Source of the DNA: a virus
DNA length: 64,000 nt
IMG/VR virus record: IMGVR_UViG_3300049016_000031
Location: 7,362-71,361 of that record
Strand: one strand, 5' to 3'
Each line of letters opens with the position of its first letter. The first letter of the stretch is position 1. A program made the translations under genes and the position numbers. The notes beneath the pieces were generated by a model. The model saw nothing but the letters and a program-made list of their open reading frames with translations. It searched no databases and was not told where the DNA came from. Positions 1 to 64,000 of this stretch are shown one piece after another.

Positions 1-425
1 GCGTTCTTCGCAATTTTTACCCCGGTCCTCCGGTTTAGGGTCGACTTCAAGTTAACCGAAACGTCCCTCCGGTCTGTGGATAATATACAAAGTTCAGCAA
101 GCATGGAATCATAAACTGCTGGTGTGAATACATCGACTCCGTAGTTATTAAGAAATAGTAGGTCGAATGCGGCAAGGTTGTGACCTATTATTAATTTTCG
201 AGTACCGATAAATTTCTTTAGGGCAGGGGACATCTTCCCGCGATTGTGAATTACGACCCCGGTTTTAGATTTCAGACCGTAGAGTGAGGTAACAGCAATC
301 TTATCCCTGAAGGGGCTAAGACCACTGGTTTCGAGATCAAGGACTATCTCATCGTCACCCTGAAGCGCGCCTAAATTATCCTCACCAAGGAGCCGAATAT
401 GTATTGATTTCTTTTTTCTTGACAT
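1..425 (-). CDS. DEDD-type 3'-5' exonuclease domain protein, N-terminal part. The ORF runs off the window start and may be the proofreading N-terminus of a family-A DNA polymerase.
   Basis: Minus-strand translation from ATG 425-423 gives MSRKKKSIHIRLLGEDNLGALQGDDEIVLDLETSGL...LIIGHNLAAFDLLFLNNYG. Exo I (DxE in VLDLETSG) and Exo II (HNxxFD) motifs are present. There is no stop before position 1. The ATG overlaps the TGA of the upstream gene (ATGA). It is absent from the ORF track because no stop lies in the window. Confidence 0.55.
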   Translation of the reverse strand, partial: MSRKKKSIHIRLLGEDNLGALQGDDEIVLDLETSGLSPFRDKIAVTSLYGLKSKTGVVIHNRGKMSPALKKFIGTRKLIIGHNLAAFDLLFLNNYGVDVFTPAVYDSMLAELCILSTDRRDVSVNLKSTLNRRTGVKIAKN

Positions 426-1186
426 CACGCCACCTCCGCAATCCACGTATCATCCTTCTTAAACCAGCATGTGTGTGTGATTCCAGAAGGTGCCGGTTTC
501 CAGCACATCTCTACAAGCTCCCTTCGCCATTCAGAGCACGCCCTGAAAAAGCCGTACTGGATGGCGTATGACATCCATTGGTGCTCTATTGGTACCATTG
601 GAGCTGTTGAGTCGTAAACATGCGCCGACCCCTGATGGATGGTTACATTCCCAAGACTGAGACCTAACTCAGTGGCAACGACTTGGGCAAGACCGCCGAA
701 CATTACCAGGTCATAAGGCAGACCAAGGACTAAGTCCTGAGAGCGCATTGAGACGATGGTAATGAGGAGACCCTGGCGGATAAGGAACTGGATAGAGGTC
801 GTACATGGCTGACGCCACATTTCTACCGGGGACCGATTTCCTATTACAAGGATCGCTTCCCGGGTATCCCTATCCCTAACCAACAGGTTGAGAACAGACT
901 CCATCTGGTTAATTATAATGGGTCCATACATGAGATCACGGTGATAGAGGGATAAGTCAGCTGAGGGCGCCGCGTACTTGATGACGTTGGGATTGTACAC
1001 CCCGGCGACCATCATCATAAGTTCGGCCCAAGCTAGCTGAAGATTAAATTTGGGTCGGTAGAAGACATACCGGGGGTCGTAAGAGAACTCAGTTCCAAGA
1101 ATTTCTCTTGTCCCAAAACCCCTCGGAGACACCGGCTCCCCTAACGTTGTAACACGATTAACAAAATCACAATACGTCGGCAACAT
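425..1186 (-). CDS. Thymidylate synthase (ThyA/PF00303) family enzyme. Predicted cytosine-specific dCMP hydroxymethylase or dCMP methylase rather than canonical dTMP synthase.
   Basis: Aligns to the ThyA core: PC(T) nucleophile Cys, QF, MRSQD (Arg166/Ser167/Asp169 in E. coli numbering), LGLPYD and GSAHVY (His207/Tyr209). The specificity Asn177 of ThyA (GLPFN) is Asp here (GLPYD), as in T4 gp42 dCMP hydroxymethylase. The folate-side motifs (TTK, ELLWF) have diverged. Confidence 0.7.
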   Translation of the reverse strand: MLPTYCDFVNRVTTLGEPVSPRGFGTREILGTEFSYDPRYVFYRPKFNLQLAWAELMMMVAGVYNPNVIKYAAPSADLSLYHRDLMYGPIIINQMESVLNLLVRDRDTREAILVIGNRSPVEMWRQPCTTSIQFLIRQGLLITIVSMRSQDLVLGLPYDLVMFGGLAQVVATELGLSLGNVTIHQGSAHVYDSTAPMVPIEHQWMSYAIQYGFFRACSEWRRELVEMCWKPAPSGITHTCWFKKDDTWIAEVA

Positions 1187-1188
1187 AA

Positions 1189-1620
1189 TTAATACTCCCT
1201 TTCCATAAACATGCTCATAATTCCAGGACCACCTTTAAGCCAAGATAGCAACCTCTCCCGGGTCGCCTGCTCCATAGCCTCACGCACCGACCCGTCATAC
1301 CCCGGGTAGTCGAAATCGAACTTAGGCATTCCAATACCTGCAGCAACTTCATACTCCGCTACCGACCCGGGGGAGTTATGCCAACCCGGTATTAACAAGA
1401 TGGCGTCGCAGCGTTTTAGAAGTTCAATGTCACCTTCAAGCCAAACCGTATCGGGGGCAGCGCCGGTAAAAAACACTGTATTTGCATGCGGACATAATGC
1501 AGCACCCCCATTATTCCACACCAGAAGGGACCACTTCATGGCTTCCATAATGTTTTGTTGAACCTCGAACATATTGCCGGTCTTTGACCTGAACGGTCCA
1601 GCGATATAGACGACTTTCAT
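1189..1620 (-). CDS. DUF4406 / nucleoside 2-deoxyribosyltransferase-like protein (Rossmann fold shared with DNPH1/Rcl and MilB)
   Basis: Starts MKVVYIAGPFRS and has a C-terminal CDAILLIPGWHNSPGSVAEYEVAAGIGMP block typical of the DUF4406 / N-deoxyribosyltransferase-like family. Its stop lies 3 nt from the start of the ThyA-like gene. Confidence 0.55.
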   Translation of the reverse strand: MKVVYIAGPFRSKTGNMFEVQQNIMEAMKWSLLVWNNGGAALCPHANTVFFTGAAPDTVWLEGDIELLKRCDAILLIPGWHNSPGSVAEYEVAAGIGMPKFDFDYPGYDGSVREAMEQATRERLLSWLKGGPGIMSMFMEREY

Positions 1621-1805
1621 AACATTTCCCTCAACTTCTCCATTTCATCAATAAATTGTTGCGCCAATAAGATAAGGCTGTTGATACATTCTCTAGCCTC
1701 CTCTAAATTTGCAATATGATGATCCTCAGTGAAATCGTAAATTACTCCACCACCTAGGGTCTCACATTCACCTGTAATTTTATCTTTTATCTGTTCTAAA
1801 GTCAA
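1617..1805 (-). CDS. small hypothetical protein (62 aa)
   Basis: ORF with 4-nt overlaps to both neighbours (operon-style coupling). No recognisable motif. Confidence 0.35.
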   Translation of the reverse strand: MTLEQIKDKITGECETLGGGVIYDFTEDHHIANLEEARECINSLILLAQQFIDEMEKLREML

Positions 1806-3910
1806 CGTTTAATTCCCCAACTCACTGACGATCTACCCCCGGACATTTCTATTCCAACAATTCGTAGATCATCTGAAATGCTATAACTACGGCGCCTGAA
1901 TTCCTCAGGAAACCAAGCACCAAACTCCCGGGTCGGATGACCCATATTCTTTGAAAATTCATTGAACGACATGTACGCTTCCCTAAGCGTCACCGACTCG
2001 TTCTTAGCTTGCCGCATTTCTTCCTTTATGAACAAATCCACGATCTCAGAGAAATCTCGGTAGCGAGCAACCGCTTGCATCGACCCCTCGGGAACTGCCC
2101 ACGCTCCCTTATTTATAAATTTCTTGACCCTCGCGTTGCCCTCAAGCGACCAGTTGAGCACGCCGGAAATCTCCCTCATAATCTTAGACCTAAGCATCAC
2201 ATCCTTATGCTTTGGCATATTCTTAAACTCAATCATCACAATCCTCGCCCACACCCCTTCAGCCTCATCAATTGTTGGAAGTGTATTTGAAGACCACATC
2301 AACTTTCCGTCGAACTCTATGTCAAAAGGCCGACCGTACGGGTGACGACCTGTTATGGGGTCCCCGCTAACCAATGCCTTGAACACCCCGGTTCGGAACC
2401 TTTGGGTCGAAAGCTCCGTGCATACAGCGAGATACGCGTCTGAAAGGGTCGCAATCTGGTACTGTGAGATGTTTTGGGATGAAATTGTAACCGCCCGAGG
2501 ACCGAACATCTTAAAGATCGTACTCAGAAAAGTAGATTTACCAGTACGTTGCTGGCCGTAGAGCCATGTCATTCGCTCGAAGAAATTTCCGGGTTGGAGG
2601 CAGTACCCGACCCACTCCTGGAGAAATTTAGCAGCGTCAGGAACAGCTTCCTCAAGAAATCGCAACCAGTTATCCGCCTTCGCCTTCGGGTCATATTCAA
2701 CAGGCATCACTCTCTTTATGTGGTCGTCTATTTCAGCGGGCCGGAACTCCTTAGTCTCTAAATTCAACACACCATTAGTGAAGCCTACAAGATTGGCGTC
2801 GGGTTTGGAGAATCCCCGGGTCGCAAGTGTGCCTTTGACCATCCTTGCAATCCCCTCCGCGTTCTTTGGCAGAGCCGGGAGACGCTTCTCTATCCCATTT
2901 TTAAGTAGGACCAACTCGTCGAGGATGTTAAAAATTCCGGAAGCAAGTGATGACAGCTCGCGAGGGTGCCAAAGTCCGTCGAAGAATTCCATCAACTGTC
3001 CCTCTTCCCAAGCCCAGCTACATTCCCCATCGACAAAGTAAGTCACAACATCCTGAATAATCGTAGCCTGCTCCCCAATGACTTCTTCCCGATACTTAAC
3101 CTCACCATCCTTGACATTGTACCTCATCAATTCAAGGAGCAATTTCTGCTTCCGACCCAGGCATTCGGAGAATTCCTTGAACGTAACCGCATCGCCGTTG
3201 ATGTGCCTCTCGTACGTCGACTTTACGACTTTAACACGATTGGAAGTCTCCTCATCCTTCATAGCGGAGCATACCAAACGGATGACCTTCTCAATCCGAA
3301 CAGGGGACCAGTCACACCTCGACGCAATCGTTGAAAACCCCAGGACAACGTTGTTGCGATTACCTGAAAACCAATACGGTATAAGGAGGCACGCCAGGAG
3401 GTGCTCCTCAATTTGCTGCGGGTCGTATCGCACGTGGTTTCCCCCGACCCATTCACAAGGAACATGCGGAACCGTTTTAATGTTCATCGACCCTGGAATG
3501 CGGAGCAAGCGGGTTATGTCTACTGCTTGCTTGTCTCCGTCTAGGCATACCTGCGCTAGACGTATAAGTCTCATAGCCTCGGGAGCCGGTATCTCCTCCT
3601 TAAGGTACATGTAGACATGAAAGCCATGCCCGGAATTTATTATAGCACTTGGCTTAAGGGCGGTCTTAGTCTCCTTAGAAATTTCAGAAATGCCGTCTAG
3701 GTCCGAAAATATTGCAGTGGCAGAGAGCACCTTGGTCGCCTCGCGTGGGCAGGCTCCGAAGTACCAATTTGATCTCGGACTCAGTTTTGGAAGTTTAGGA
3801 TTAGAACATTTAGTTTCAAATGTGCCTGTATTTTCTCCGCCGACCGACCTAATAAGTATGTTTCTTGACGAAACTGAGAACAGTTCTTTAAGAAAATCAA
3901 CTGAATTCAT
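1802..3910 (-). CDS. DNA primase-polymerase (prim-pol) / D5_N / SF3 (P4-type) helicase
   Basis: 702 aa. N-terminal prim-pol signature ...SDLDG...SGHGFHVYMYL. Central D5_N-like region. Walker A GQQRTGKSTFLS and downstream Walker B/sensor motifs typical of phage/plasmid primase-helicases. Confidence 0.8.
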   Translation of the reverse strand: MNSVDFLKELFSVSSRNILIRSVGGENTGTFETKCSNPKLPKLSPRSNWYFGACPREATKVLSATAIFSDLDGISEISKETKTALKPSAIINSGHGFHVYMYLKEEIPAPEAMRLIRLAQVCLDGDKQAVDITRLLRIPGSMNIKTVPHVPCEWVGGNHVRYDPQQIEEHLLACLLIPYWFSGNRNNVVLGFSTIASRCDWSPVRIEKVIRLVCSAMKDEETSNRVKVVKSTYERHINGDAVTFKEFSECLGRKQKLLLELMRYNVKDGEVKYREEVIGEQATIIQDVVTYFVDGECSWAWEEGQLMEFFDGLWHPRELSSLASGIFNILDELVLLKNGIEKRLPALPKNAEGIARMVKGTLATRGFSKPDANLVGFTNGVLNLETKEFRPAEIDDHIKRVMPVEYDPKAKADNWLRFLEEAVPDAAKFLQEWVGYCLQPGNFFERMTWLYGQQRTGKSTFLSTIFKMFGPRAVTISSQNISQYQIATLSDAYLAVCTELSTQRFRTGVFKALVSGDPITGRHPYGRPFDIEFDGKLMWSSNTLPTIDEAEGVWARIVMIEFKNMPKHKDVMLRSKIMREISGVLNWSLEGNARVKKFINKGAWAVPEGSMQAVARYRDFSEIVDLFIKEEMRQAKNESVTLREAYMSFNEFSKNMGHPTREFGAWFPEEFRRRSYSISDDLRIVGIEMSGGRSSVSWGIKR

Positions 3911-4002
3911 TGCTCCCCACTCTTAAGATATGTGTATAACTTTCGGCACACCAGTCAGTCGGAGGAATGATGACTGGTGCGCCGTTGAGCGACGTGGGTC
4001 GC

Positions 4003-4725
4003 CTAGAAGGAGGACATTTCAGCGGCTTGCTGAAGAACCGAGTCCTTAACTTTGATCTGCTTGATGACCGGGGTGTACCACGTATTCTTTCCGGCAACGT
4101 TCTTGTTAGAAGTTACCTCAATGGCGAAGTTCCCCATCTTCAATTTCTGGATAAGCGTGTTCAGTCCGGTTGCAGGTCGCAGGCCAGCGCCACGGACGTC
4201 CCAGGCAGCTATCGACCCGTGAGTTTCTGAGTACACGCCGTATGAGTAGTAGAAGGTGCATTGCGGTTTGATGTTGTTTCCCTTCTTATCCTTTGTCCAC
4301 TGATTGAATGGGCAACGGGCACAATTGCCGCCAGGATCTCCCTCGCCGTGAATGGAATCACCACTCTGGCAAAGAATCCCGTCGTCGTCCGTGGAATAGA
4401 TTCGCCCCTTTCCAAACACAAGGGGCACCAAGATCACACTATCTACTGGGTCGGACCCTGGGAAGATGAACTGGCCCGCTTGAGCAGCACCATCTAAAAC
4501 CTCGGGTGTGCCAGGTTGCCCGATCTTAAGGCGGGGCATCTGGAGGTCTGAGCGGTCAAATTCTGGAGTTGAACTATATCGGCGTTGACTTGCTGGTACG
4601 CCGTCCTCAGTTGTTGATAATTCACCAGAAGATTGTCGAACCAAAGCTGTGCTCCCAGCAGAGTCGGCAAGATTCGCCTTCCGGGCAGCCTTGGGAGCGG
4701 GTTTTTGTGGTACTTGTTTTCTCAT
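4003..4725 (-). CDS. hypothetical Cys-cluster protein (240 aa)
   Basis: Long ORF coupled (ATGA-type overlap) to the downstream kinase gene. Contains C...CARCPFNQW...C, which is consistent with zinc binding. No family recognised. Confidence 0.45.
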   Translation of the reverse strand: MRKQVPQKPAPKAARKANLADSAGSTALVRQSSGELSTTEDGVPASQRRYSSTPEFDRSDLQMPRLKIGQPGTPEVLDGAAQAGQFIFPGSDPVDSVILVPLVFGKGRIYSTDDDGILCQSGDSIHGEGDPGGNCARCPFNQWTKDKKGNNIKPQCTFYYSYGVYSETHGSIAAWDVRGAGLRPATGLNTLIQKLKMGNFAIEVTSNKNVAGKNTWYTPVIKQIKVKDSVLQQAAEMSSF

Positions 4726-5669
4726 ATTAAATTTTTCCTTTGCAATTCTACTTTTAGACTTGAAATAGAGCTAGCATACTTTACCGACTGCGAACCCCAG
4801 CGGTAGCCGTAGGCGGGGTGCTCAATCCGCAAAGCATGCAGCTTAAGTTTCATACAAATGTGGGCGGCTACCGCTCCCACAGCAATTATTTGCTTATTCA
4901 GGAGGAATTCAGCAAAAAAATCTATGTTTGCTGTTACGTGGTCGGAGTTGGTCCATCCCCACCTCAGTGCGGAGTCACCGAACTCTCGACCAAATCGAGT
5001 CGTATAAGAACTAGTAAAGGGAAGCCAGTTATGCGACCCGTCAGGGAGGCTCCGCCGGTCGCCGATGACAATTACCGGGGCTGGGGTCGGACCGCAATAA
5101 TTCGGTGGGAGGAGTTCTGGAACCGTTTGATTCTTAAAAATCAATCTGTTAAAAGTTGTTTCAACAAGCGCTTTTAAGCTTGATTCAGTGTGGTTGTTAT
5201 TGAACACACGCCAGCCAAATTTAATACCGTACCCCTCATACTCAGCTCTCTCATCGAACGGCTCGACTGGGTGATCAGTTGCATCCCTGTGCGACCTAAG
5301 GGACTCAACGGATGGGCCGAGGAGCATTAAGCGCTCACCAGAAGATATGAGGGCGCGGTCGTAGTGCCACGCGGCAAGCCAGGGGTCATCCCAGAACACT
5401 CGTTTTGAAGAACGGGTCTCAGGCATAAGCTTAGGGTACACATACTCCGACGCCCAGGAACGGTCCCAAATTATCGCGTCGTTTGCCTGCGATGCATAAA
5501 TTTCAGACATCGGTTTGGTGTACACAAATGAGTGATGCGAGGCGTCAGGCATCCCCCAGTGAAACGCCTTTGCTTGAACGCCATTCGCAGCGCAGTGCTG
5601 CATCAAAGCATGAATAAACGTGGTTTTTCCCGCCTTTTCACAACCGTCAACTACCAGTAATTTTGACAT
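4722..5669 (-). CDS. P-loop nucleotide kinase (thymidylate-kinase-like) fused to a C-terminal uracil-DNA-glycosylase-like domain
   Basis: Probable start is MSKLLVVDGCEKAGKTTF (RBS AGGAACGAAGGA upstream); the longest ORF would start at 5723. The DRSWASEYVY block is TMPK-like. The C-terminal ~130 aa carry PVIVIGDRRSLPDGSHNWLPFTSS and IEHPAYGYRWG, resembling UDG motif A ([21 protein letters not shown]) and motif B (HPSPLS). Confidence 0.6.
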   Translation of the reverse strand: MSKLLVVDGCEKAGKTTFIHALMQHCAANGVQAKAFHWGMPDASHHSFVYTKPMSEIYASQANDAIIWDRSWASEYVYPKLMPETRSSKRVFWDDPWLAAWHYDRALISSGERLMLLGPSVESLRSHRDATDHPVEPFDERAEYEGYGIKFGWRVFNNNHTESSLKALVETTFNRLIFKNQTVPELLPPNYCGPTPAPVIVIGDRRSLPDGSHNWLPFTSSYTTRFGREFGDSALRWGWTNSDHVTANIDFFAEFLLNKQIIAVGAVAAHICMKLKLHALRIEHPAYGYRWGSQSVKYASSISSLKVELQRKNLI

Positions 5670-6033
5670 TCTTAGTCCTTCGTTCCTCAGTTCTAATTCG
5701 ATGACAATTTGCACAAACAACATCGCAACTCTTCATTTCATTTTTTACTCTATTCAAACTTCCAGTTGAAATCAACGCTCCAACATTAGCTGTTTTTATT
5801 TCTCCCGGTCGATGATCAAACTCCATGCAGCATATTGGATACATATTTTGACAATCCATACAAGGTTGATTTCGTACAGAATTAACGTAGTCTCGTAATT
5901 TTTGAATTCTTTTTGCGTGATAAACTTTATACTGCGCAAGAGCCTTTGGAGTACGCCTATACTCCTTCTTTTTTAGAGGATTATTTTTCCACCAATCTTG
6001 TTGAGCTTTTTTATGTCTCTCATCTCTAGCCAA
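5647..6033 (-). CDS. HNH / His-Me finger endonuclease (endonuclease VII-like zinc-binding nuclease)
   Basis: CMDCQ...CCMEFDHRPGE...N...CANCH, i.e. the CxxC-DH-N-CxxCH arrangement. Confidence 0.6.
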   Translation of the reverse strand: MARDERHKKAQQDWWKNNPLKKKEYRRTPKALAQYKVYHAKRIQKLRDYVNSVRNQPCMDCQNMYPICCMEFDHRPGEIKTANVGALISTGSLNRVKNEMKSCDVVCANCHRIRTEERRTKNVKITGS

Positions 6034-6196
6034 AGTGTTTTACCTAGAGAAGTATATCACGTGTAAGAGTAAAAGTAAACTAACAAGTCCAACCGACCCT
6101 GGGACTTGGTCCCACTTCCTGGGTAGTCGTTACACATGCGCAACGAAGGTCCTGTTTTTATTACCAGCGGACTTGGAAAACTTCTGGAAAACTAAA

Positions 6197-6285
6197 TGCC
6201 CGTAGAAGGACTCGAACCTCCAAACATTGACTCTGAGCCTATTTCATATCGGCGCCAACCGCTATACCAATTTGCGTACTCGGGC
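6197..6285 (-). tRNA. tRNA-like gene, about 89 nt, type II (long variable arm); possibly tRNA-Ser(UGA)-like. The anticodon assignment is tentative.
   Basis: The minus strand carries a canonical T-arm GGAGG-TTCGAGT-CCTTC followed by a 3' acceptor strand TACGGGC + A. The 5' acceptor strand GCCCGAG pairs 5 of 7 positions. A D-loop with the TTGG (G18G19) signature is present. A candidate anticodon stem GCCGA/TAGGC has loop TATGAAA. Several features are non-canonical (A33, an A-A mismatch in the acceptor stem). Confidence 0.5.
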
Positions 6286-6324
6286 AACGAGGTGGGGGGT
6301 CCGTGAGAGGACCCCTGCCACAAA

Positions 6325-6927
6325 CTACTTATATTTTTCGAGTTTCGAAGGGTCGTGACGGAGGTAATACGCCACATTGCTGACCCAAGATACTGACTTT
6401 TTGAACTCGGGCACCTCCCTAAGGATCTGCGTATGCATATCAGCGTACGTCAGCGTGTTCTCCTCGATGAGGCGCTTGGCGACTTTGAACGCCGCCTTAT
6501 CGGTTAGCTTCTCGGCGTCCCTAGCCTGCTTGGCTGGGTCGATTGTGTTAGATTTTTGTGCGGGTAGCGGCGCAACAGCCCTGCCCTTCGATTTTTGTCT
6601 CACAGCTGTACTACTCATACTTTCTCCTTTTGGCGAAGCCAGTCTTTCCGGCTCCACGTTCTGCGTGTTCTTTTTCGGCTTTGCGATGTACGACGCTGCG
6701 TCGAACCCCTCAACCGGTTTCTTGGTCACCTTGACCACGGTAGCAAGTGATACGCGTTCGACCTTATCATAATCAATTGTCCGGTTGAACATCTTTCCTG
6801 TTTTCTGTGTACACACGACCGCCGACCCAGGTGTTTTGTAAAGCAAAATCATGACCTGATTTGTTAACTCTACAGAGACCGTGGAACCTGGTCTTACTTG
6901 CTTAATTTCAACATAACCTGGTGTCAT
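6325..6927 (-). CDS. hypothetical protein (200 aa), Lys-rich central region
   Basis: Long ORF with no competing frames. Lys/Ala-rich linker; possibly nucleic-acid binding. Confidence 0.5.
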   Translation of the reverse strand: MTPGYVEIKQVRPGSTVSVELTNQVMILLYKTPGSAVVCTQKTGKMFNRTIDYDKVERVSLATVVKVTKKPVEGFDAASYIAKPKKNTQNVEPERLASPKGESMSSTAVRQKSKGRAVAPLPAQKSNTIDPAKQARDAEKLTDKAAFKVAKRLIEENTLTYADMHTQILREVPEFKKSVSWVSNVAYYLRHDPSKLEKYK

Positions 6928-6979
6928 TTATTTTTCCTCACGTTTAGATTCTACTACGATAAATTGTCAAAGTAAACAA

Positions 6980-7333
6980 TTATTTTACCTGCTGACCCAA
7001 ATGTTTTTCTAATTCCTCGAGTGCTAAAAGTACGCGTTTAATCATACAGTACTCGAAAATTCCGGAAGTAGTTCGGTGTGTGGTAAAGGCAGACCAAACT
7101 TGGTTTAATAACTCGCTGGCCGCCTTCAAGAAAAGAACTACTTGACCATCAAGCAAGTTGCTTTCTTTCAAAAATACTTCAAGCTCAACAACAGCAACTT
7201 GAGCTGACTCTATCCTACTAAATGCTCTAATCAATTGCTGATTTATAAGCGCGCTCTCAATTGACTTTACTGCCAGAACAGTATTTCTACAGTTTATTTG
7301 CACTTTACAACTTAATTGTTGAGATTCAATCAT
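6980..7333 (-). CDS. hypothetical protein (117 aa)
   Basis: ORF with a 4-nt overlap to the upstream gene. Confidence 0.4.
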   Translation of the reverse strand: MIESQQLSCKVQINCRNTVLAVKSIESALINQQLIRAFSRIESAQVAVVELEVFLKESNLLDGQVVLFLKAASELLNQVWSAFTTHRTTSGIFEYCMIKRVLLALEELEKHLGQQVK

Positions 7334-8157
7334 AAATCCTCCAGTTCCTCGATTTCCCGAATCGACCGGCGAATAAACTCAGCCGGGTTTGTTAACAACT
7401 CATCGTGTAAGTGGATGGGAGGGATGAAGCGAAAGTGATTATCACCACCAAGGGCGACCCGCATAGCCTTGCCGTACTTCTCCCGACCCTCACCGGCCGG
7501 GTGGATTCCCCACGCCCAACCACCGGTCGTACCGGCTTTCTGATTCAAGTAGTTATACCCGAGTCCACGGCACACGCCTTGCGATGTTAAAGCATAGCAT
7601 GCCATAGCAAGGTCGAGCGGGGTGGTGCCGACGCGAATTGCATTTATCCCGGTTTTTCCACCCCAACCACTTAGTGCCGATAAAACGTAGAGTTCCATGG
7701 GTCGGATCGCCGAGATCGCCATCGCCATGGCCAACAAATTGATACCACGGGTCTGAAGAGATCGAACATCAATACCCCCTGAGGAAGTGACATCCACGGC
7801 AATGACGACAGGAGCGCGGTCAGACTCGACCTCTATTCGCCGCATCATGGAGTCTGGACGGCCCACAAGAGCGGACGGTATGCAGGGTCGAACGCCGCTG
7901 ACGGAATGACCCCACTCCATTGTGGGGGTCTCGATCTGGAGGACGAGATCCTCGAGAAGTCCCTCAGCGCGGTGGACATTGGTTGAGTCTCCAAATTGTA
8001 CCTTGCGCCGAACCTCTTGTGCGGTTTCACCGGTCCACGACCCACGGAGCTTGTCCTCGGTAATTAAAGGAATAGCGGCAGCGCCAAACTCGGTTAAGGA
8101 GTCCCACCAAAATACTTTGGTCTCGTGCTTTAGGATTTGTTTGGTCTCAGTTCTCAT
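7330..8157 (-). CDS. hypothetical protein (275 aa), possible vWA-like (MIDAS-like DxTxS) domain
   Basis: VVIAVDVTSSGG resembles the vWA MIDAS motif DxSxS. The assignment is weak. Confidence 0.45.
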   Translation of the reverse strand: MRTETKQILKHETKVFWWDSLTEFGAAAIPLITEDKLRGSWTGETAQEVRRKVQFGDSTNVHRAEGLLEDLVLQIETPTMEWGHSVSGVRPCIPSALVGRPDSMMRRIEVESDRAPVVIAVDVTSSGGIDVRSLQTRGINLLAMAMAISAIRPMELYVLSALSGWGGKTGINAIRVGTTPLDLAMACYALTSQGVCRGLGYNYLNQKAGTTGGWAWGIHPAGEGREKYGKAMRVALGGDNHFRFIPPIHLHDELLTNPAEFIRRSIREIEELEDL

Positions 8158-8411
8158 CTCGCTATCCTCTTACACGCCATTAGGACATCCCTCGGTCTCA
8201 CTACGATGACCCCTCGGTCAACCAACTGGTGAACTGTAACCGACTTAGGCTTATTGTAGTGGGGATGACCACGCTTGAGTCCCTCGAACCAGTAACGTCC
8301 GATCCCGATTCTACTCATACAAGAGTGGAGCTCGTCGAGCGACTCGGTTGATGTTATGTGAATTCCGTCCGTGATAATCATATAGATATAAGAGCAATTG
8401 GTGTGCCACAA
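8154..8411 (-). CDS. hypothetical protein (85 aa)
   Basis: ORF coupled to the upstream gene by a 4-nt overlap. Confidence 0.4.
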   Translation of the reverse strand: MWHTNCSYIYMIITDGIHITSTESLDELHSCMSRIGIGRYWFEGLKRGHPHYNKPKSVTVHQLVDRGVIVVRPRDVLMACKRIAR

Positions 8412-8454
8412 CTAAGTTGTTGATTATATTACACACCTGGGTCGGATGTGACAG

Positions 8455-8477
8455 AATTTGGCAACCACTTTGTGACA
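8455..8477. repeat. AATTTGGCAACC-NN-TTTGTGACA motif, copy 1
   Basis: AATTTGGCAACCACTTTGTGACA. Confidence 0.4.
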
Positions 8478-8709
8478 TGTTGTGTCATTGAGAACACTAG
8501 TTTGAATTCTTGGATCTCTATTATTTCAATCTCCAATATGCTTGACACGTTCTTACACCGCCTCAAAAACGTGTCTCGGTCAGACAGCGTCTCAACAGTG
8601 GATTGCATAACAATATCACCATGCTTATTCTTAGCAATAACTTTGTAAATTGTAGGCATCTTGTTTCCAACTGTTGGGTCGGTTGGCTTTCCCGACCCCC
8701 CTCTATAAA

Positions 8710-9744
8710 TTAATGCCCAGCAAATGGATTTGTTGGAACCGACCGGGGCCTTGGACCCTTGAAGAACAGGTTACTTGCAACGACATTCAGTGCTGTGCGA
8801 TCCGCGACCTCGAGGTTGTCGTTGTGTGACGCCATATCGGTTGCGTAATTGAAGATGTCGTAGGCTGGAACGCCGGTCGACGCGAGGTCTTTCCAGGTAC
8901 TGGGTTGGCTGAAGATGTCATCTAACTCAAGGTGCTCCGACTTGAGGTACGCCGCGTTTATTTTCGAGGTATTAAACTTACGGTCGAACTTCTCCAAATT
9001 AACCAGAGACCGAACAGACTGCATCTCGCCGACTGTTGCCGGGGTGTCCATGAGCCTCTTGGAGTTAGCGACGACCATGGAGGCGAGCTCACGGTCACGG
9101 AGCCTTAATTGGCGACGGACTAGAGCACCGACCCCGACCAACCAACGCTTAGCAGACTGCTCAACGGACGTCATACCGTTGGTGCAAATCATCCTCAGGA
9201 AGGAGGGGCTGTACCACCCATTCTTCTGACCGAGGTTGAGGCCGATACCGGTCTTCCAAAAGTCCTTGGCGCCGACCCTGACGTTGGTTGTCTCATCTAT
9301 AAGCAGAGCAGAGATAGTAAGCTTGTCGATATCAAAGTAGCATCGGTTGAGGGTCGTGTCCTTTTTCTCAGAGAGGTAGGCATCGATGAAGTCGAGTTGT
9401 GAGTCGAAGTTGAGGCGATTGCCGTCCGACTTCTCAGGAATAAGCACACGCTTAACAGTATCGTCCTCCCGGTCGATTACTGCAACTAGCTCCTGGCGAT
9501 TTCTGAACTTGGCAACCGCTGATGAGAATTGACGCCACTGCTGCGCAAGATCGGACTCCTCCTTCTTACCGACCGAAAGGGCACCGTATTGTAACTTGAA
9601 GATGTTGCAGAGGTCGGTCGCGGATTGACCAACAAGTTTGCGTTCCCCCATTTGGAGCCCCGAGGACTTGGAAAGTGAGAGCTGGGTCGCGTCCAGGGGT
9701 ACGACCCGGAGATTCTCGATTTCTTTACGAACTGCGTTTAACAT
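8710..9744 (-). CDS. hypothetical protein (344 aa)
   Basis: Long clean ORF. No motif recognised. Confidence 0.5.
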   Translation of the reverse strand: MLNAVRKEIENLRVVPLDATQLSLSKSSGLQMGERKLVGQSATDLCNIFKLQYGALSVGKKEESDLAQQWRQFSSAVAKFRNRQELVAVIDREDDTVKRVLIPEKSDGNRLNFDSQLDFIDAYLSEKKDTTLNRCYFDIDKLTISALLIDETTNVRVGAKDFWKTGIGLNLGQKNGWYSPSFLRMICTNGMTSVEQSAKRWLVGVGALVRRQLRLRDRELASMVVANSKRLMDTPATVGEMQSVRSLVNLEKFDRKFNTSKINAAYLKSEHLELDDIFSQPSTWKDLASTGVPAYDIFNYATDMASHNDNLEVADRTALNVVASNLFFKGPRPRSVPTNPFAGH

Positions 9745-9826
9745 TTTGTTTCCTCCTAGAATTTTTAACTACCCTATAGTACGACAAACCGGATGTCAAG
9801 TAAACATTTATTTTATCAGCTTTGGA

Positions 9827-10276
9827 TTATTTTTCTCCAATCGTTATTCCAATATTGCCATCTTGATTTTTGTATAAGACGCCCTGCCGCAGCATGTAAT
9901 GGAAAACACCCCAAACACGGTTCCTCTTAACATCTGGATGCATCTTAATTACTGAGTCAAACGCTTCTGTCATCTTTTTTGGACCATGTTGCAATTCAGT
10001 AAGAAGTTGCTGCCGGATGACCTTAGACGGCGTTTTATACTGACCAAGGGTTGGTTTTGGATCCTTGGTAGTTTTATTAGACACAAGCCTCTCCTCCCTC
10101 GGAAAGATACAGAAGGTATGATCCCAATTTCCGACCGGGAGCGAGTCGAGTCGGCAAATCAAACCCCGCTCAATTTCCGTCGCAATGCCGATTTGAATCC
10201 ACCTCTCCCGGACCTCACCATCTGGCTCGGTCCAATGAGATTTTGTTACAATATTATGAACTACACTTTTTGACAT
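9827..10276 (-). CDS. hypothetical protein, probably about 150 aa starting at MSKSVVHNIV
   Basis: A strong RBS (AAGGAGAA) lies 7 nt upstream of ATG 10276. The N-terminal 56 codons of the longest ORF (to 10444) are low-complexity and overlap the next gene. Confidence 0.45.
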   Translation of the reverse strand: MSKSVVHNIVTKSHWTEPDGEVRERWIQIGIATEIERGLICRLDSLPVGNWDHTFCIFPREERLVSNKTTKDPKPTLGQYKTPSKVIRQQLLTELQHGPKKMTEAFDSVIKMHPDVKRNRVWGVFHYMLRQGVLYKNQDGNIGITIGEK

Positions 10277-10526
10277 CTCGCTTCTCCTTATGGTCGGCAT
10301 TCTGTTCATCAATAAAGGCGGTGAGCTCCCCGAGGCACTTGGCATCAAAAATAGTGCCAGCCGAAGTTGTGCAAAAGACGTACACCCGCCAGGGAGTATA
10401 CCACCCGACACGGCCCAACTCGTTATGGCTACCAACTGAGACAATCTTCCAGACCTTAGTCTTCCCGGTGTCGTTGACCTGATGGAACTCGAGAAAACTC
10501 TGCTGAATTTTTAATTCTCTATTCAT
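10254..10526 (-). CDS. small hypothetical protein (about 90 aa)
   Basis: Starts MNRELKIQQ, preceded by a GGAGG RBS. Confidence 0.4.
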   Translation of the reverse strand: MNRELKIQQSFLEFHQVNDTGKTKVWKIVSVGSHNELGRVGWYTPWRVYVFCTTSAGTIFDAKCLGELTAFIDEQNADHKEKRDVKKCSS

Positions 10527-11034
10527 TATTAAAAACCTCCCCAAATTTCAAAGGCAATACTACTACGTGCGTTGCACCCTTGGCTTCCAAAGCCTTCCGA
10601 CATTCGTCTTCAGTTTGACCTACGACACTCGCTTGCTCAAAACCATTAATTACTGCACCTCCGAGAAAGAGGGCCGGGGGCGAAACAGGGGTCGCCACTT
10701 GAAACCACTGATCTGAAAGAAGAAGTTCAGCGGATACAGAAAGGACGCGGTGGTAGTTGCCATAGGCAAACATCTTAAGGGTACCGGTTCCACCACACGC
10801 CCGGTGTATGTACGACCCCTCCGACCAAGAGGGGTGTGACACATATCCCCCTCGGTTCATTACGTACATTGTCTGGGTCCAATCCATGTTCTGGTTCAAT
10901 GGAATGTCTTCGTTTGTGAATTTAATCATTTTTTCTCCCTTATGCCTCTCCCCGCGGCGCCCTCTGGAAGTTCTTGGCAGACGTCCAAACGCCGCGGGAG
11001 AGGGGTGTTCAGTCCCACAGGGGACCAAAATCAA
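10519..11034 (-). CDS. hypothetical protein (171 aa)
   Basis: ORF overlapping the upstream ATPase gene by 4 nt. Confidence 0.5.
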   Translation of the reverse strand: MILVPCGTEHPSPAAFGRLPRTSRGRRGERHKGEKMIKFTNEDIPLNQNMDWTQTMYVMNRGGYVSHPSWSEGSYIHRACGGTGTLKMFAYGNYHRVLSVSAELLLSDQWFQVATPVSPPALFLGGAVINGFEQASVVGQTEDECRKALEAKGATHVVVLPLKFGEVFNNE

Positions 11035-12011: not shown

Positions 12012-12181
12012 TGATTTCCTCCACCTATTTTAATTTTGAAAACATAAACTTGCGCACACCTATATAGATGCAAACGATGTACCACTCCTCACTTCGCTTG
12101 GACTTATTTTAAGCCCTTTGGTTGTAATAGTTAGCCGGGTTGCCCTAATGCCTAGTGCGGATCCGACCCAGAAGGTAACAC

Positions 12182-12203
12182 AATTTGGCAACCGTTTGTG
12201 ACA
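12182..12203. repeat. AATTTGGCAACC-NN-TTTGTGACA motif, copy 2
   Basis: AATTTGGCAACCGTTTGTGACA lies in the 200-nt gap upstream of the ATPase gene. A related GTGACAAAGTTTGTGACAACATG lies at about 16003-16025. Confidence 0.4.
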
Positions 12204-12210
12204 AAGTGTG

Positions 12211-13161: not shown

Positions 13162-13164
13162 TTG

Positions 13165-13814: not shown

Positions 13815-13840
13815 TTAAGTTTTCTCCTTTACACTTATTT

Positions 13841-21436: not shown

Positions 21437-21440
21437 TGGG

Positions 21441-55090: not shown

Positions 55091-56877
55091 GAGATTATAA
55101 TGTCTACAGCAGAATAATTATTGATGATGTTGAAATTCCTATAACAAATTTTGACTACTCGGCCGAGGCTGGGCAACTCTCCGACCGATTGATATTTGGG
55201 TTAGCGGACATCTCACTTGACTTATCCGACACTGAAGAAATTAGTTTTGAAATTGGAATCGAAGTTGGGGGGTCTATAAATTGGGCAACAATTATTTCAG
55301 GCGGTATATTTGCCGGGGAGTCAAAAGTTATCCGTTGGCCTGGTGACGACCGGACTGTAACTATTTCTGGGTCGCTAGCCGATAAGTGGGACCTCGCCCC
55401 TGAGCAACAAATAGTATTGTACGACCCAGAGGTGGTCGACCCGATTTCCATTTTTGGGTCCGCCCCATCTGAGCTAATTGATGAGAATTACAATACAATT
55501 GAGCCGCTCTTGGTTTCAAAGACTGACTTTGATCTCCACCAGTTACTCAACTATATCTATGTTGATAAACTCGGGTTTAATAGTGTTATAACGAATATTG
55601 AAACGTACAGACTCAATTCAATAAACATAGGAGTCGAACAATCCTTTCACTCAGTAGCCGCGCAAGAAGTTGGAATATTTGAACCTAAGTATCATGTAGA
55701 TGATTTCAATAATATTTGGATAACCGACCCACAAGGAATTTTACCTCCAGCTTTGCCAATTCGCCAATTATCATCCAGTAAATACGCAGAGTTTCAAAAA
55801 TCTTCGCAGCGTTCTAGACTTGTTAATTGCGTAATTTTAGACTTCGGTGAAAATTTTGTTGCTGGGTCGCAAGAACCCACTCCTAGAACAGAGCAAGAAA
55901 CAATTGAAACTGGTACGTATGGTCAGTTAGGGTGGCAGAGAACTACAATTACTAGGTATATTTTTGATTTTTTTGAAGATTTGGACCGCCCGACCCTTGC
56001 GACTAGATCTGTTGTGTATAGGGAAGTCACCAATGTTTCTGCTAGAGCGGATGACCTGGTAAGGGTCGTATCCATTGAAGATAAGGAGGACCTCTTCAAG
56101 TATGACTACAAGCTAAAGGTCGGATACACAAAAACAACGCAATTGTACTGTAAGCTTCCCGGAACAAGTGCAAAAATGAGGTCTGTTCAGACCGAGTCGA
56201 GTAGGATTAATTGGGAATCCTTAAATACGCCCGGCGAGTTTCTTAAGAAGTCAGAGATTCTTGATGTATCAGGAATTGTATTAGAATTTGACGATGGGGA
56301 CGGTAATCTCAGGCGTCAATCATTATTTGATGCTAATAGGCTTAACGAAGTTCCTGAAACAGATGATGACGTAACACTACTTACAGGGCGAGCGATTTCG
56401 ACCAGGATAGATGTATTTAGCAACAGGGGCAGGGATCAGATAGAAGTGATGACCCAAGAAATCAATCACCTCGAGGACCAGGCACCAACAAATCAAAATG
56501 CAACATTCCAGCACACAGGAACTATACAAGTTCGCGGGTCGGGATCCAATGGTCAGAGGCGAAGAATACGAATCCCCAAAGGTGACGGGCCGTTTAGAAC
56601 GCCTGTAGTTATTAACGCAGGAAATTTACCCCTGGGTCGGGCGCGGCAAATTGCTGATCGTATCCTTGACCGCCAAGGGCAGGACCCCTCGATCGTGTCT
56701 ATAGAGCCTGCTGGATTGGACCTCTCTGCCAGGCGGGGTAGTCTTCGGCGTGTTCTGGATAGGGAAGAAGTTGAACACCTAGCAATGATTGCTGGAATTA
56801 GTATCTCAGGGAGAAGTCTTGGAACACCGGAATTTAACGTAGTTATGAGAATGACTGGAGTGATTATAAATGAGTAA
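55087..56877 (+). CDS. large tail/baseplate protein (596 aa)
   Basis: Assigned by position and size. Confidence 0.5.
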   Translation: MRDYNVYSRIIIDDVEIPITNFDYSAEAGQLSDRLIFGLADISLDLSDTEEISFEIGIEVGGSINWATIISGGIFAGESKVIRWPGDDRTVTISGSLADKWDLAPEQQIVLYDPEVVDPISIFGSAPSELIDENYNTIEPLLVSKTDFDLHQLLNYIYVDKLGFNSVITNIETYRLNSINIGVEQSFHSVAAQEVGIFEPKYHVDDFNNIWITDPQGILPPALPIRQLSSSKYAEFQKSSQRSRLVNCVILDFGENFVAGSQEPTPRTEQETIETGTYGQLGWQRTTITRYIFDFFEDLDRPTLATRSVVYREVTNVSARADDLVRVVSIEDKEDLFKYDYKLKVGYTKTTQLYCKLPGTSAKMRSVQTESSRINWESLNTPGEFLKKSEILDVSGIVLEFDDGDGNLRRQSLFDANRLNEVPETDDDVTLLTGRAISTRIDVFSNRGRDQIEVMTQEINHLEDQAPTNQNATFQHTGTIQVRGSGSNGQRRRIRIPKGDGPFRTPVVINAGNLPLGRARQIADRILDRQGQDPSIVSIEPAGLDLSARRGSLRRVLDREEVEHLAMIAGISISGRSLGTPEFNVVMRMTGVIINE

Positions 56878-62428: not shown

Positions 62429-62880
62429 AATTAATCTCTTTAACTCAAGGTTTGTTTGCTAAAATTAGTGACGAAGATTTTGAAATAATAAGTAAATACA
62501 AATGGAAAGCTCACAAAAGTAGAGGAATAACATACGCGTACAGCGGAGATTCTAGAATTTTTGGATCTATGCATAATTTTATTCTTAGTGGCGCTGCAGA
62601 GGTAGACCACAAAAATAGAGACGGATTAGATAATCAAAGAGAAAATATACGACCTTGTACTCATAAACAAAATATGTACAATCAAGGACCTAAAAAATCG
62701 AATTCTACGGGATTTAAGGGAGTATCACAAGATTCTAAAGGAAAATTTATTTCAATGATTAGAACAGATTCTGGAAGATTATATTTAGGTTATTACAACA
62801 CTGCAATAGAAGCAGCTGTAGCTTATGATAAGGCAGCAAAACAGCATCATGGGGATTTTGCGCATCTAAATTTTCCTTAA
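62425..62880 (+). CDS. HNH endonuclease with AP2 DNA-binding domain (homing endonuclease)
   Basis: N-terminal HNH (EVDHKNRDGLDNQRENIRPCTHKQN). C-terminal AP2 (GVSQDSKGKFISMIRTDSGRLYLGYYNTAIEAAVAYDKAAKQHHGDFAHLNF). Confidence 0.65.
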   Translation: MKLISLTQGLFAKISDEDFEIISKYKWKAHKSRGITYAYSGDSRIFGSMHNFILSGAAEVDHKNRDGLDNQRENIRPCTHKQNMYNQGPKKSNSTGFKGVSQDSKGKFISMIRTDSGRLYLGYYNTAIEAAVAYDKAAKQHHGDFAHLNFP

Positions 62881-63170
62881 ACAGTACTCCATTTCAATCC
62901 AGATGACCTGTAACAAGTAACAACTACATTTTGGATGGGGTCAAGAATAAAGATCCAGTCGCTAATTTTTAAGTACTCGTTGCTACCATACGACCTAAGA
63001 AATGCCCGGTTTACCCGATACTCTTTTTTGATCGTGACCGGAATTGCTTTAGACAAAAGTTCTTGAATTTTGGCGCTAGCTTTAACAGTATCAACATGAG
63101 TCCATCCAGCTCTCTCCATAAAGCGTTCAACGCAGTGTGCTGAAATTTCCATTAAAATTCCTCCAAACAT
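62877..63170 (-). CDS. hypothetical protein (97 aa)
   Basis: Minus-strand ORF after the strand switch, with a 19-nt overlap to its upstream neighbour. Confidence 0.4.
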   Translation of the reverse strand: MFGGILMEISAHCVERFMERAGWTHVDTVKASAKIQELLSKAIPVTIKKEYRVNRAFLRSYGSNEYLKISDWIFILDPIQNVVVTCYRSSGLKWSTV

Positions 63171-63514
63171 AGTTTTGCTATTATGACTGGGCAGTCTAAT
63201 TTATGCTCTCCGTCAACTCCATTACACAAGATACAGATTAACGTGGCTCCATGACGTGTGGACTTAATTGATAGCACAGACTGCACCAGAGAATAAAACA
63301 ACTCCCGGCTGGGCGAGCACTCTGCGGCCCTCCAGCTTTCCATTGCGCAAGCTATTTCTACAGCTTCATCAATTTTACGGAGGGGTTGGCACTTGTGAAC
63401 TTCTGAAAAGTGCGCCCACAAGCGCACAACAATAGGCCCAATCGGGTCGCGACCCAAGAGTATAAATTTTGGTTCATTTTCTTTCGCTTCAGCGTGGTAA
63501 TCTTTTCTTTTCAT
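63152..63514 (-). CDS. hypothetical Cys-containing protein (120 aa)
   Basis: ORF with a 4-nt overlap to the dCMP deaminase gene. Confidence 0.4.
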   Translation of the reverse strand: MKRKDYHAEAKENEPKFILLGRDPIGPIVVRLWAHFSEVHKCQPLRKIDEAVEIACAMESWRAAECSPSRELFYSLVQSVLSIKSTRHGATLICILCNGVDGEHKLDCPVIIAKLCLEEF

Positions 63515-63948
63515 CTTAATCCTATTAACTCGACATTTTTTTGCATCATTAGTTCTCTAGCAATTCGAAGTTCCTCTTCCCGACCATACGGAGATAAGTA
63601 GTAAACCCGGACAATCCCGTCCCGAATAAGCTGCTTAGTGCAAAGCAGGCAGGGGGTGTGGGTCGCAAGCATGTAGCACCCTGAAATATTGCCCATAAGT
63701 TTTTTAGCCCAAGCTAATGCGTTATCTTCAGCATGAATTGTGCGAACGCAATGCCCTTCAAGTAATAAATGACCTGCTTCGTCGCAATGCTCTAAGCCCG
63801 GTAGCGACCCATTGTACCCTTGAGAAATTTGCTGATAGTCTGGAGTAAATATCACCGCACCTGCGTGTAATCTGTCACACGTAGACATTTCGGCCCACGC
63901 CAGGGCATTTTTTTCTAGGGCTCTTAATTTGAGATCGCATCTCATCAT
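63511..63948 (-). CDS. dCMP deaminase (cytidine/deoxycytidylate deaminase fold)
   Basis: HAEDNA (zinc-binding H-x-E) and PCLLC (PCxxC) motifs spaced as in ComEB/T4 Cd. Confidence 0.75.
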   Translation of the reverse strand: MMRCDLKLRALEKNALAWAEMSTCDRLHAGAVIFTPDYQQISQGYNGSLPGLEHCDEAGHLLLEGHCVRTIHAEDNALAWAKKLMGNISGCYMLATHTPCLLCTKQLIRDGIVRVYYLSPYGREEELRIARELMMQKNVELIGLR

Positions 63949-64000
63949 ATTTTTCTACACTCCGTTTCGACCCCGAATCCAATTCCGTCCTTGCAGTTTT

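Follow-up and report, generated by a model that had tools for sequence, protein, structure and literature searches.

Genomes that accumulate a short word far beyond chance have been described in cyanobacteria, where every highly iterated palindrome (HIP) is found together with a methyltransferase of matching specificity, single-base deviations from the HIP words gather at the edges of the motif (PMC4390886), and the positions of HIP1 sites are reported to be conserved between related genomes (PMC5861425). Among phages, the subcluster B3 mycobacteriophages show a roughly 4-fold excess of GATC/GGATCC that is absent in the sister subclusters and was reported as unexplained (PMC4841201); and in phage hypermodification systems, an enzyme of the phage sets the sequence context of the modification (PMC8256090; doi 10.1101/2023.12.21.572611; PMC8989533). 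We analyzed a 64,000-nucleotide stretch of IMG/VR virus record IMGVR_UViG_3300049016_000031 (positions 7,362 to 71,361 of the record; the window in what follows), which comes from a tailed phage whose genes form two divergent arms, and in which the hexamer GGGTCG and its complement CGACCC are iterated throughout. The hexamer is a viral instance of a short, highly iterated word, most likely linked to DNA modification by the phage itself. In the literature we found no paper on GGGTCG/CGACCC in this sense, nor any description of phages whose genomes are enriched in target sites of the methyltransferases they encode. Phages commonly avoid restriction sites; where one accumulates a word instead, a sequence-specific process that profits from many sites is indicated.

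Exact counts give the following element.

1-64000, 112 on the + strand and 85 on the - strand: 197 dispersed copies of GGGTCG/CGACCC

The density is 3.08 copies per kb, in coding and non-coding DNA and in both arms, and it is fairly even along the genome, with the AT-rich early region at 20-24 kb as the exception. Base and dinucleotide content predict about 25 copies (23.8 under an order-0 and 25.8 under an order-1 model), an excess over composition of about 8-fold, where the HIP words of cellular genomes reach 15-300-fold. The over-representation well above random that a preliminary description of this DNA had reported therefore stands, also against an order-3 Markov background: 66.4 copies are expected there, and GGGTCG is the top hexamer with z = 16, followed by GGTCGG (z = 6.0), which overlaps it, and by the unrelated GTCGTA/TACGAC (z = 5.1; 64 observed against 34 expected at order 3, spread from 3 kb to 62 kb). 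Of the local counts given earlier, that of 5 copies in 26041-26640 is exact, whereas 55321-55920 has 5 copies and not 4, and 31741-32340, credited with 3, has 2 inside plus one starting at 31740. An order-4 model, the maximal order for a hexamer, expects 134.9 copies, since the motif's 5-mers carry the signal into the model itself. That a model of this order absorbs much of the excess, and that G-rich words follow the GC skew, could be taken as signs of an artefact of composition, codon pairs, peptides, assembly or sequencing; the shuffles, the occupancies and the relatives described below refute this explanation, to which we give practically no weight.

The unit of enrichment is the bare hexamer, since the positions flanking it hold at most 0.09 bit of information. 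The extended motif GGGTCGG was rejected as the unit on this ground; the extension to GGGTCGG, put earlier at two thirds of the copies, is found in 68 of 197 (35%), and the context TGGGTCGG, described as frequent, in 28 of 197 (14%). In the relative L002 (see below) an extra 3′ G is present in 55% of the hexamer copies, and in the window GGGTCGTA accounts for 21 of the 34 copies of GGGTCGT. One-base variants at positions 3-6 occur at 0.6-1.2 times expectation, while positions 1-2 are tolerant (AGGTCG 3.0x, CGGTCG 2.0x, GCGTCG 1.9x). This strict core with a soft edge looks like a protein-DNA recognition profile, unlike the mutational decay of a repeat, and it resembles the HIP words, in which one-base deviations are also concentrated at the word edge. 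An origin of the hexamer as the deamination product of a methylated site was considered and dropped, because the sole C-to-T precursor, GGGCCG, is undepleted (1.2x). The gaps between sites are exponentially distributed (Poisson spacing), and we found no distance-class excess, periodicity, paired-site geometry, orientation pairs or mod-3 effect in the window; the Poisson rather than periodic spacing and the asymmetry of the word are two differences from HIP1.

The enrichment is independent of coding. As had been proposed, all three reading frames are used: the sense copies fall into frames 0, 1 and 2 in the numbers 52 (Gly-Ser), 34 (x-Val-x) and 25 (x-Gly-Arg), the antisense copies in the numbers 13, 28 and 33, and a further 13 copies lie outside or across the called open reading frames (ORFs; simple longest-ORF calls), in 5.1 kb of non-coding DNA with a density similar to that of coding DNA. 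Shuffling synonymous codons within each gene, which preserves the proteins and the codon usage, leaves 19.4 ± 3.9 copies on the sense strand and 19.4 ± 3.7 on the antisense strand, where the genes really have 111 and 74 (z of about 23 and 15); codon permutation leaves 14 and 11. Gly-Ser pairs are spelled GGG TCG in 52 of 132 cases, where codon usage predicts about 5. We further defined occupancy as the number of positions carrying the hexamer divided by the number of positions at which the protein permits it by synonymous choice. Occupancy is 185/493 = 0.375 (sense 111/283, antisense 74/210), compared to 3-11% for fifteen control hexamers, those overlapping or resembling the motif aside. With 25-39 copies in genes expected from the shuffles (about 39 under the synonymous one) against 185 observed, all six frames and the intergenic DNA enriched and flanks without information, neither codons nor peptides can produce the pattern; an assembly or sequencing error is contradicted by a locus (L001) that was assembled independently from SRR35217125 and is 100% identical to the window over 17.9 kb, including 44 hexamer sites, and by L002, which is enriched at different positions. 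HIP1 and the alternate palindromes (GCGATCGC and others) are likewise hyper-abundant words that occupy all frames through synonymous choice, at one site per few hundred bp to 1 kb, in cellular genomes there and in a phage here.

The preliminary description also held that the motif is polarized toward the sense strand of both arms, at about 3:1 in the rightward and 2:1 in the leftward arm, as Chi-like or FtsK/KOPS-like (FtsK-orienting polar sequence) signals would be. The measured ratios are lower and are not specific to the motif: GGGTCG:CGACCC on the + strand is 78:41 in the rightward arm (1.9:1) and 33:44 in the leftward arm (1.3:1), and the other 29 permutations of G4TC give 308:173 and 152:187 (binomial against GGGTCG, p = 0.78 and 0.91). 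Per synonymous opportunity the polarity is gone, with occupancies of 0.39 sense and 0.35 antisense (Fisher p = 0.40), or, by arm, 0.42/0.39 on the left (p = 0.75) and 0.39/0.31 on the right (p = 0.22). Since the G4TC words share the ratios and the occupancies do not differ significantly, the apparent polarity reflects skew and coding opportunity; the tracking of transcription is due to G/C skew and to the amino-acid content of the proteins.

These results bear on the explanation that the word is imposed by the host, as a Chi site of its RecBCD, AddAB or AdnAB enzyme or as a self-recognition or uptake word that the phage has accumulated to escape degradation. Chi sites are short G-rich oligomers, and GGGTCG shares with Chi and KOPS that it is short, G-rich, over-represented and of a kind that acts by density; a circularly permuted phage could, moreover, profit from both orientations. 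Chi and KOPS are both defined, however, by strand polarity relative to replication, whereas GGGTCG has the polarity of any G4TC word, which vanishes after correction; KOPS polarity switches at the replication terminus (dif), and the test for a switch in the window was negative. Chi in E. coli is 10-15 times sparser than GGGTCG is here, and 3 sites per kb are far above the need of Chi protection. Uptake signal sequences and DNA uptake sequences have a core of 9-12 bp, an extended consensus, inverted terminator pairs and a competent host sharing the word, whereas the word here is a bare 6-mer without extended context or any paired or terminator arrangement, at Poisson spacing. The Chi-like, KOPS-like and uptake-like roles suggested earlier thus find no support in the window, and we regard a host-imposed signal as improbable, the more so in view of the relatives.

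Relatives were collected as metagenome loci with capsid homologues, using an alignment-based capsid scan of IMG/VR (a single-protein capsid scan of IMG/VR gave no match). L002, with a capsid protein 68% identical to that of the window, a GC content of 47% and the same gene order around the kinase and methyltransferase-like genes described below, has 71 copies in 21 kb (8.4x) and an occupancy of 0.38. L005 and L006 (capsid 56-58% identical, GC 55-56%) have 2.5-2.6x excess and occupancies of 0.29 and 0.23, and the signal is faint in L007 (GC 66%; 1.1x, occupancy 0.14); occupancy is 0.02-0.08 in GC-matched unrelated loci and in other capsid relatives. The fold excess shifts with GC, while the number of sites stays at 2.5-3.3 per kb across GC 46-56% (L006 2.5, L005 2.7, L002 3.3, window 3.1; 1.7 in L007). 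About 70 further capsid relatives (at most 60% identity) show no GGGTCG enrichment. The enrichment is therefore confined to one phage clade; this lineage-bound distribution, as well as the persistence of the motif in relatives at GC 55-56%, also speaks against a host signal.

Within the clade the level is maintained and the positions turn over. Orthologues of the window and L002 share 61% protein identity and only 32% identical codons at conserved amino acids with four- or sixfold degenerate codons, so that synonymous sites are saturated. At the 51 positions that permit the hexamer in both, occupancy is 0.41 and 0.43, and 10 positions are occupied in both, against 9.1 under independence. HIP1 sites, by contrast, are reported to be conserved by position; the lack of conservation here is seen at saturated synonymous divergence. 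The same numbers lend mild support to a non-adaptive drive, in which a methyltransferase site becomes abundant through modification-dependent biased repair of the very-short-patch type, which turns near-cognate sequences into the full site, and its density brings no benefit, an explanation that we consider rather unlikely.

The sister phage L003 (positions 1-15469 of JAXOUH010014167.1 in NCBI GCA_034680565.1; capsid 66% identical, GC 44%) has 3 GGGTCG copies in 15 kb and no enrichment. It carries a weaker iterated family of its own, CCTCGA/CTCGAG/CCCTCGA (32 against 6.6 expected, synonymous-shuffle z = 7.6), and an 8-mer, ACCCTCGA, with 7 copies against 0.4; the contig excludes the modification genes. 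Related lineages with different words are also known for the HIPs. Because L003 has the same GC content and the same avoidance of TTTAAA, CATATG and GATATC as the window (see below) with another word, it further weakens the case for a host signal.

Occupancy is heterogeneous among the genes of the window (chi-square 65.4, 41 d.f., p = 0.009), and several genes are empty or nearly so.

43019-45637, + strand: long tail/receptor-binding-type gene with a BppL_N domain, motif-poor (2/26 permitted positions occupied)
12211-13161, - strand: motif-free gene (0/10 occupied, P = 0.009)
29986-30519, + strand: HNH homing-type endonuclease, motif-free (0/5; PHROG HNH endonuclease, 6e-37)
21755-22147, - strand: putative homing endonuclease of the NUMOD4 type, motif-free (0/5; weak NUMOD4 match)

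The gene of a Laminin-G tail protein is also unoccupied (0/6). For the long tail gene the binomial P against the genome mean of 0.375 is 0.0007; its counterpart in L002, with patchy homology, has 8/26 positions occupied, and the gene was probably exchanged recently. The empty or near-empty genes are of the kinds that would be expected to pass from phage to phage, and that likely exchanged genes are poor in the motif indicates a pressure that acts on resident DNA over time, with recent imports still lacking the word. The donors of the receptor-type gene, themselves without the motif, probably infect similar hosts, another point against a host-imposed word; motif-poor genes that look recently acquired would also fit a gradual conversion by biased repair.

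A candidate reader of the hexamer is encoded in the window itself, within the following gene set.

27862-28995, + strand: divergent C5-cytosine-DNA-methyltransferase-like (C5-MT-like) enzyme, 377 aa (Pfam DNA_methylase, 5e-13)
26023-26841, + strand: 5-hydroxymethyl-dU (5-hmdU) DNA kinase homologue (Pfam HMUDK_hel, 9e-21)
30684-31403, + strand: class-I S-adenosylmethionine (SAM) methyltransferase (Methyltransf_23, Pfam 8e-10)
425-1186, - strand: divergent thymidylate-synthase-family (TS-family) enzyme (Pfam Thymidylat_synt, 1e-16, partial match)
63511-63948, - strand: dCMP deaminase (Pfam dCMP_cyt_deam_1, 5e-17)
4722-5723, - strand: thymidylate-kinase-like protein (Pfam 0.006, PHROG thymidylate kinase 1e-4, weak matches)

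The canonical motifs of C5-MTs are FxGxG (I), PC (IV), ENV (VI), RxR (VIII) and GN (X). In the 27862-28995 protein, motifs I, IV, VI, VIII, IX and X are all present in variant form: LAGSG, PPCSGWS, ECVQ, RKRYFWVA, TxxExxRLMGxP and GKGVP are conserved in the family alignment, with ECV in place of ENV, GK in place of GN and PCS in place of PCQ. The protein matches the PHROG DNA methyltransferases (5e-25), and the family profile matches M.HaeIII over both lobes (1e-17); its NCBIfam dcm score of 21 bits, against a cut-off of 100 bits, places it far from the canonical Dcm type, and it may use another substrate, or catalyze another reaction, than C5-cytosine methylation. Homologues are 63% identical in L002, 45% in L005, 46% in L006 and 36% in L007, and a metagenome scan with the methyltransferase alignment found no relatives closer than 36%. 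The 27862-28995 protein is the prime candidate for the reader of the hexamer.

The kinase homologue lies two genes upstream; its tblastn matches were limited to SP10-group Bacillus phages, besides the homologues in L002 (52%) and L005 (38%). The SAM methyltransferase is kept across the clade (70, 56 and 53% identity in L002, L005 and L006) and is a candidate second modification enzyme. The TS-family protein scores 54 bits, against NCBIfam thymidylate-synthase equivalog cut-offs of 108 to 576, and is a candidate dUMP hydroxymethylase; the thymidylate-kinase-like protein is a candidate kinase of 5-hydroxymethyl-dUMP. As a whole, the set is suggestive of thymine replacement or hypermodification. 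No aGPT-Pplase, pyridoxal-phosphate (PLP), radical-SAM or TET/JBP enzyme was recognized in the window, nor was any of the known downstream transferases, so that the final base may be new. The C5-MT-like enzyme, the kinase homologue, the TS-family enzyme, the dCMP deaminase and glycosyltransferases make the window similar to described hypermodification systems (the clusters of C5-MT, TET and glycosyltransferase genes, and the 5-hmdU kinase pathways of SP10, phiW-14, M6 and ViI), which differ in that their enzymes read contexts of 2-3 nt (GpC, GCY) or modify 20-50% of T. We know of no description of target enrichment in the genomes of those phages. HIP words have a cognate orphan methyltransferase, and here a C5-MT-like gene, a candidate for this role, follows the enrichment by clade; the enzyme differs from those of the HIP systems in belonging to a divergent C5-MT-like family inside a 5-hmdU/thymidine-hypermodification set.

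Homologues of the METHYLTRANSFERASE-like enzyme from IMG/VR and the JGI metagenomes were placed on a neighbor-joining tree with their motif statistics. Clade A consists of the window, L002, L005, L006 and L007, with the GGGTCG signal. The nearest low-GC enzyme clade, clade B, takes in most of the closest homologues and comprises 13 distinct loci (31-34% identity, GC 43-56%), all of which are enriched for another word, GGATC, at 3.8-8.9 copies per kb and 1.9-5.2x (weakly in L177); three more loci, near-identical or short (L098, L176 and L180), agree. The loci recorded with GGATC/GATCC, at 5-9 copies per kb, are L090, L092, L094, L095, L097-L100, L173, L175, L176, L180, L185, L186 and L193. GGATC occupancy in clade B is 0.38, 0.39, 0.39, 0.39 and 0.31, against 0.05-0.13 for controls, and is equal in sense and antisense. 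GGATC and GGGTCG have the pattern GG-R-T-C in common. Over 110 loci, the synonymous-shuffle z of the top hexamer is usually 3.5-6, compared to 12-22 in clade A and 6-10 in clade B; a few other loci are outliers, among them L095 with GGCCGG/CCGGCC (24 against 3.0, z = 12) and L161 with CACCGG (z = 8.5). The L095 word is a second one besides GGATC, and so is CGGCCG in L186 (30 against 4.1).

The proteins that clade B, sampled within 10 kb on either side of the enzyme gene, has in common with the window are limited to the methyltransferase-like protein, the TS-family enzyme and the dCMP deaminase (in L100, genes for a thymidylate-kinase-like and a dUTPase/MazG-like protein are present in addition). 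These shared genes are a set typical of thymine-replacing phages, and the methyltransferase-like protein is the sole sequence-specific DNA enzyme common to both lineages. The kinase was rejected as the determinant, because Bacillus phage SP10, which has the kinase and lacks this enzyme lineage, shows no iterated word, and because the GGATC phages have no kinase match in the sampled regions. GTAC was rejected as a general motif of the methyltransferase family: the excess in Micrococcus phage Kurnik and L007 is equaled in high-GC loci without the enzyme and vanishes under the synonymous-shuffle null. The GGATC phages and Actinomycetia phage DSL-LC01 share the avoidance of TTTAAA, CATATG and GATATC with the window and differ in the word or have none, which again argues against a host signal. 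The B3 mycobacteriophages offer a parallel as a lineage-specific, genome-wide excess of short words in phages, with the difference that their words are palindromic; they gave no tblastn match to the window methyltransferase-like protein at E<=1e-8, and B3 phage Phaedrus has ParB-like and PAPS-reductase-like genes. To our knowledge no occupancy or turnover analysis of the B3 words has been published.

Of the preliminary options, the target of a sequence-specific modification enzyme is thus the one that is favored, by the enzyme in the window, the clade-restricted enrichment and the GGATC clade with the same occupancy. We put a probability of roughly 40% on the reading that GGGTCG (loosely RGGTCG) is the site of a DNA-modification enzyme encoded by the phage lineage, its density being kept by a weak genome-wide pressure. 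The most probable agent would be the 27862-28995 enzyme beside the 5-hmdU DNA kinase; a weak, strand-symmetric pressure over the whole genome would keep about 3 sites per kb, with about 38% of the permitted positions filled and the positions used turning over freely; and the pressure would be a selection that favors having enough modified marks per length of DNA, for protection or self-marking. That the enzyme reads the motif, and that the phage benefits from the density of modification, are both points that we infer. The absence of polarity, the Poisson spacing and the lack of flanking context match an orientation-free, density-type recognition. The pressure is lineage-specific, position-free and equal in two lineages with different words, and the simplest agent would be a phage-encoded reader. 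Relative to a baseline of about 0.06, an occupancy of 0.38 raises the odds about ten-fold, which in mutation-selection-drift balance would put the scaled selection coefficient (S, or 2Nes) for each site at roughly 2-2.5 (about 2.3 with these values), of the order of codon-usage selection.

Several observations weigh against this modification-site reading. The link between the enzyme and the hexamer is circumstantial, and the association is confounded with phage phylogeny, the two clades being effectively two observations. Most phages with more distant homologues of the enzyme have no iterated word under the synonymous-shuffle null (the cultured phages Kurnik and DSL-LC01 and Gordonia phages among them), so the enzyme alone is insufficient, and the sister phage L003 iterates another, weaker word. 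The word is not symmetric, so that one C5 enzyme could mark only one of the strands unless CGACCC is a substrate too, and the benefit of one mark per 325 bp is not evident. Protection is not general, as TTTAAA and other palindromes are still avoided: TTTAAA (the DraI/AhaIII site) is absent from the window against about 34 copies expected, with AAATTT at 75 against 42, and CATATG (1/12), GATATC (2/14), AGGCCT (3/14) and AGATCT (5/17) are also depleted. Finally, a non-adaptive drive would leave the positions just as unconserved.

Avoidance of TTTAAA, CATATG and GATATC is also found in L002, L003, most phages of the GGATC clade and DSL-LC01 (the loci noted for TTTAAA avoidance are the window, L001, L002, L003, L090-L100 and L171). 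The pattern points to hosts whose restriction enzymes are alike and to T-containing sites left unprotected by modification; as proof of a shared host it was discarded, since TTTAAA avoidance is widespread among low-GC phages and supports similar hosts only weakly.

For the drive by biased repair, two clades that reach the same plateau of about 0.38 with different words look like a mechanistic equilibrium, and Elhai's model for HIP1 proposes such repair (PMC4390886). Against it stands that no one-mismatch neighbor is depleted, as a specific source of mismatch correction would demand (GGGTTG 1.0x, GGGCCG 1.2x, GGGTCA 1.0x), that the alternatives for the Gly-Ser codon pair are all reduced roughly proportionally, and that a scan of about 80 of the 91 ORFs revealed no mismatch endonuclease, Vsr-like or other; the first and the last of these are mild objections. 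An Endonuclease VII gene adjoins the enzyme gene in L002; it has no counterpart in the window, where no homologue occupies that position, and was dropped as a partner nuclease.

Another protein of the phage, unrelated to base modification, could also bind the word or initiate at it: an abundant DNA-coating or condensing protein that requires a certain minimum of sites, or the following enzyme.

1802-3910, - strand (leftward arm): primase-helicase of the P4/D5 type (archaeo-eukaryotic primase, AEP; profile matches)

The classical site of the T7 gene 4 primase is 5′-GGGTC-3′, which the hexamer contains; one site per about 650 nt and strand is a spacing similar to the length of Okazaki fragments, a 6-nt requirement would select for density, and the strand-symmetric, Poisson-spaced, position-free pattern would suit a primase or a coating protein alike. 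In T7, however, its own sites are barely enriched (GGGTC 1.4x, TGGTC 1.7x, GTGTC 0.9x), the enzyme of the window is of the AEP/D5 type and not of the zinc-finger DnaG type that reads GTC, there is no preference for the lagging-strand template on either side of the divergent junction, and, in the sampled regions, no replication protein is among those common to the window and the GGATC clade. We consider such a site unlikely.

If the modification-site reading is correct, it predicts a specificity for the divergent C5-MT-like family, and it would mean that a motif-limited modification can drive codon choice genome-wide, with an effect comparable to translational selection; the phage would be a small model for the HIP1 problem of why genomes accumulate targets of orphan methyltransferases. 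Tentatively, and with more doubt, the two unrelated phage groups may carry a bar-code of asymmetric words that is read by an uncharacterized C5-MT-like lineage within the 5-hmdU pathway; such epigenetic self-marking by the phage, with genome sequence and modification enzyme co-evolving, would be a viral counterpart of HIP1 or Chi, possibly with a new base modification at the words. The occupancy statistic offers a simple route to predicting, from nothing but sequence, the modification motifs of phages that have not been cultivated.

The phage is new, as a near-identity search with 20 kb against INPHARED (50,697 deposited phage genomes) gave no close match; the window belongs to a contig of at least 71 kb from metagenome JGI 3300071358, of which about 7 kb is not covered here. 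Capsids of Arthrobacter, Gordonia and Mycobacterium phages share about 40% identity with the capsid protein of the window, and both word-bearing groups (GGGTCG and GGATC) probably infect actinobacteria. When 185,579 species genomes were scanned with the capsid, the only matches were distant ones from many phyla or mis-binned ones, none of them GGGTCG-enriched, and no tRNA genes were found in the window. Genes for replication and nucleotide metabolism, one for an AAA ATPase among them, make up the leftward arm (about 1-23,500, - strand). The rightward arm (24,000-62,900) begins with the kinase homologue, the methyltransferase-like gene, HNH endonucleases and the SAM methyltransferase, continues with the small and large terminase subunits, portal, protease and HK97-type capsid protein, and ends, after a double glycosyltransferase, with tail genes and a GH24 lysozyme. 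This two-domain glycosyltransferase (Galactosyl_T + GT2; 38684-40381, + strand) lies directly 3′ of the major capsid gene and is kept at the same place in all close relatives (L002 11396-13165, L003 5554-7428, L088 3286-4968, L089 5996-7675), and its position suggests glycosylation of the capsid or of DNA.

Three further features lie in the leftward arm. An intergenic element of about 49 nt occurs three times among small early genes (20822-20870, 21389-21437 and 22158-22206), with the layout …GATCCCCGG…GGTTGGGCC-hairpin-GGCGGGCGGTT; these are possibly terminators or regulatory repeats. Near the inner end of the arm, a 34-nt inverted repeat (18889-19004; 88% complementary, 48-nt spacer) with the inner palindrome GAAAGCTAATAGCTAGCTAATAGCTTTC is a candidate operator or origin element. 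Five early genes of the - strand, with starts within 20543-23516, have in common the upstream sequence TAAATTTAAGGAGGAA (read on the - strand), which is a very strong Shine-Dalgarno sequence together with a conserved AT-rich leader.

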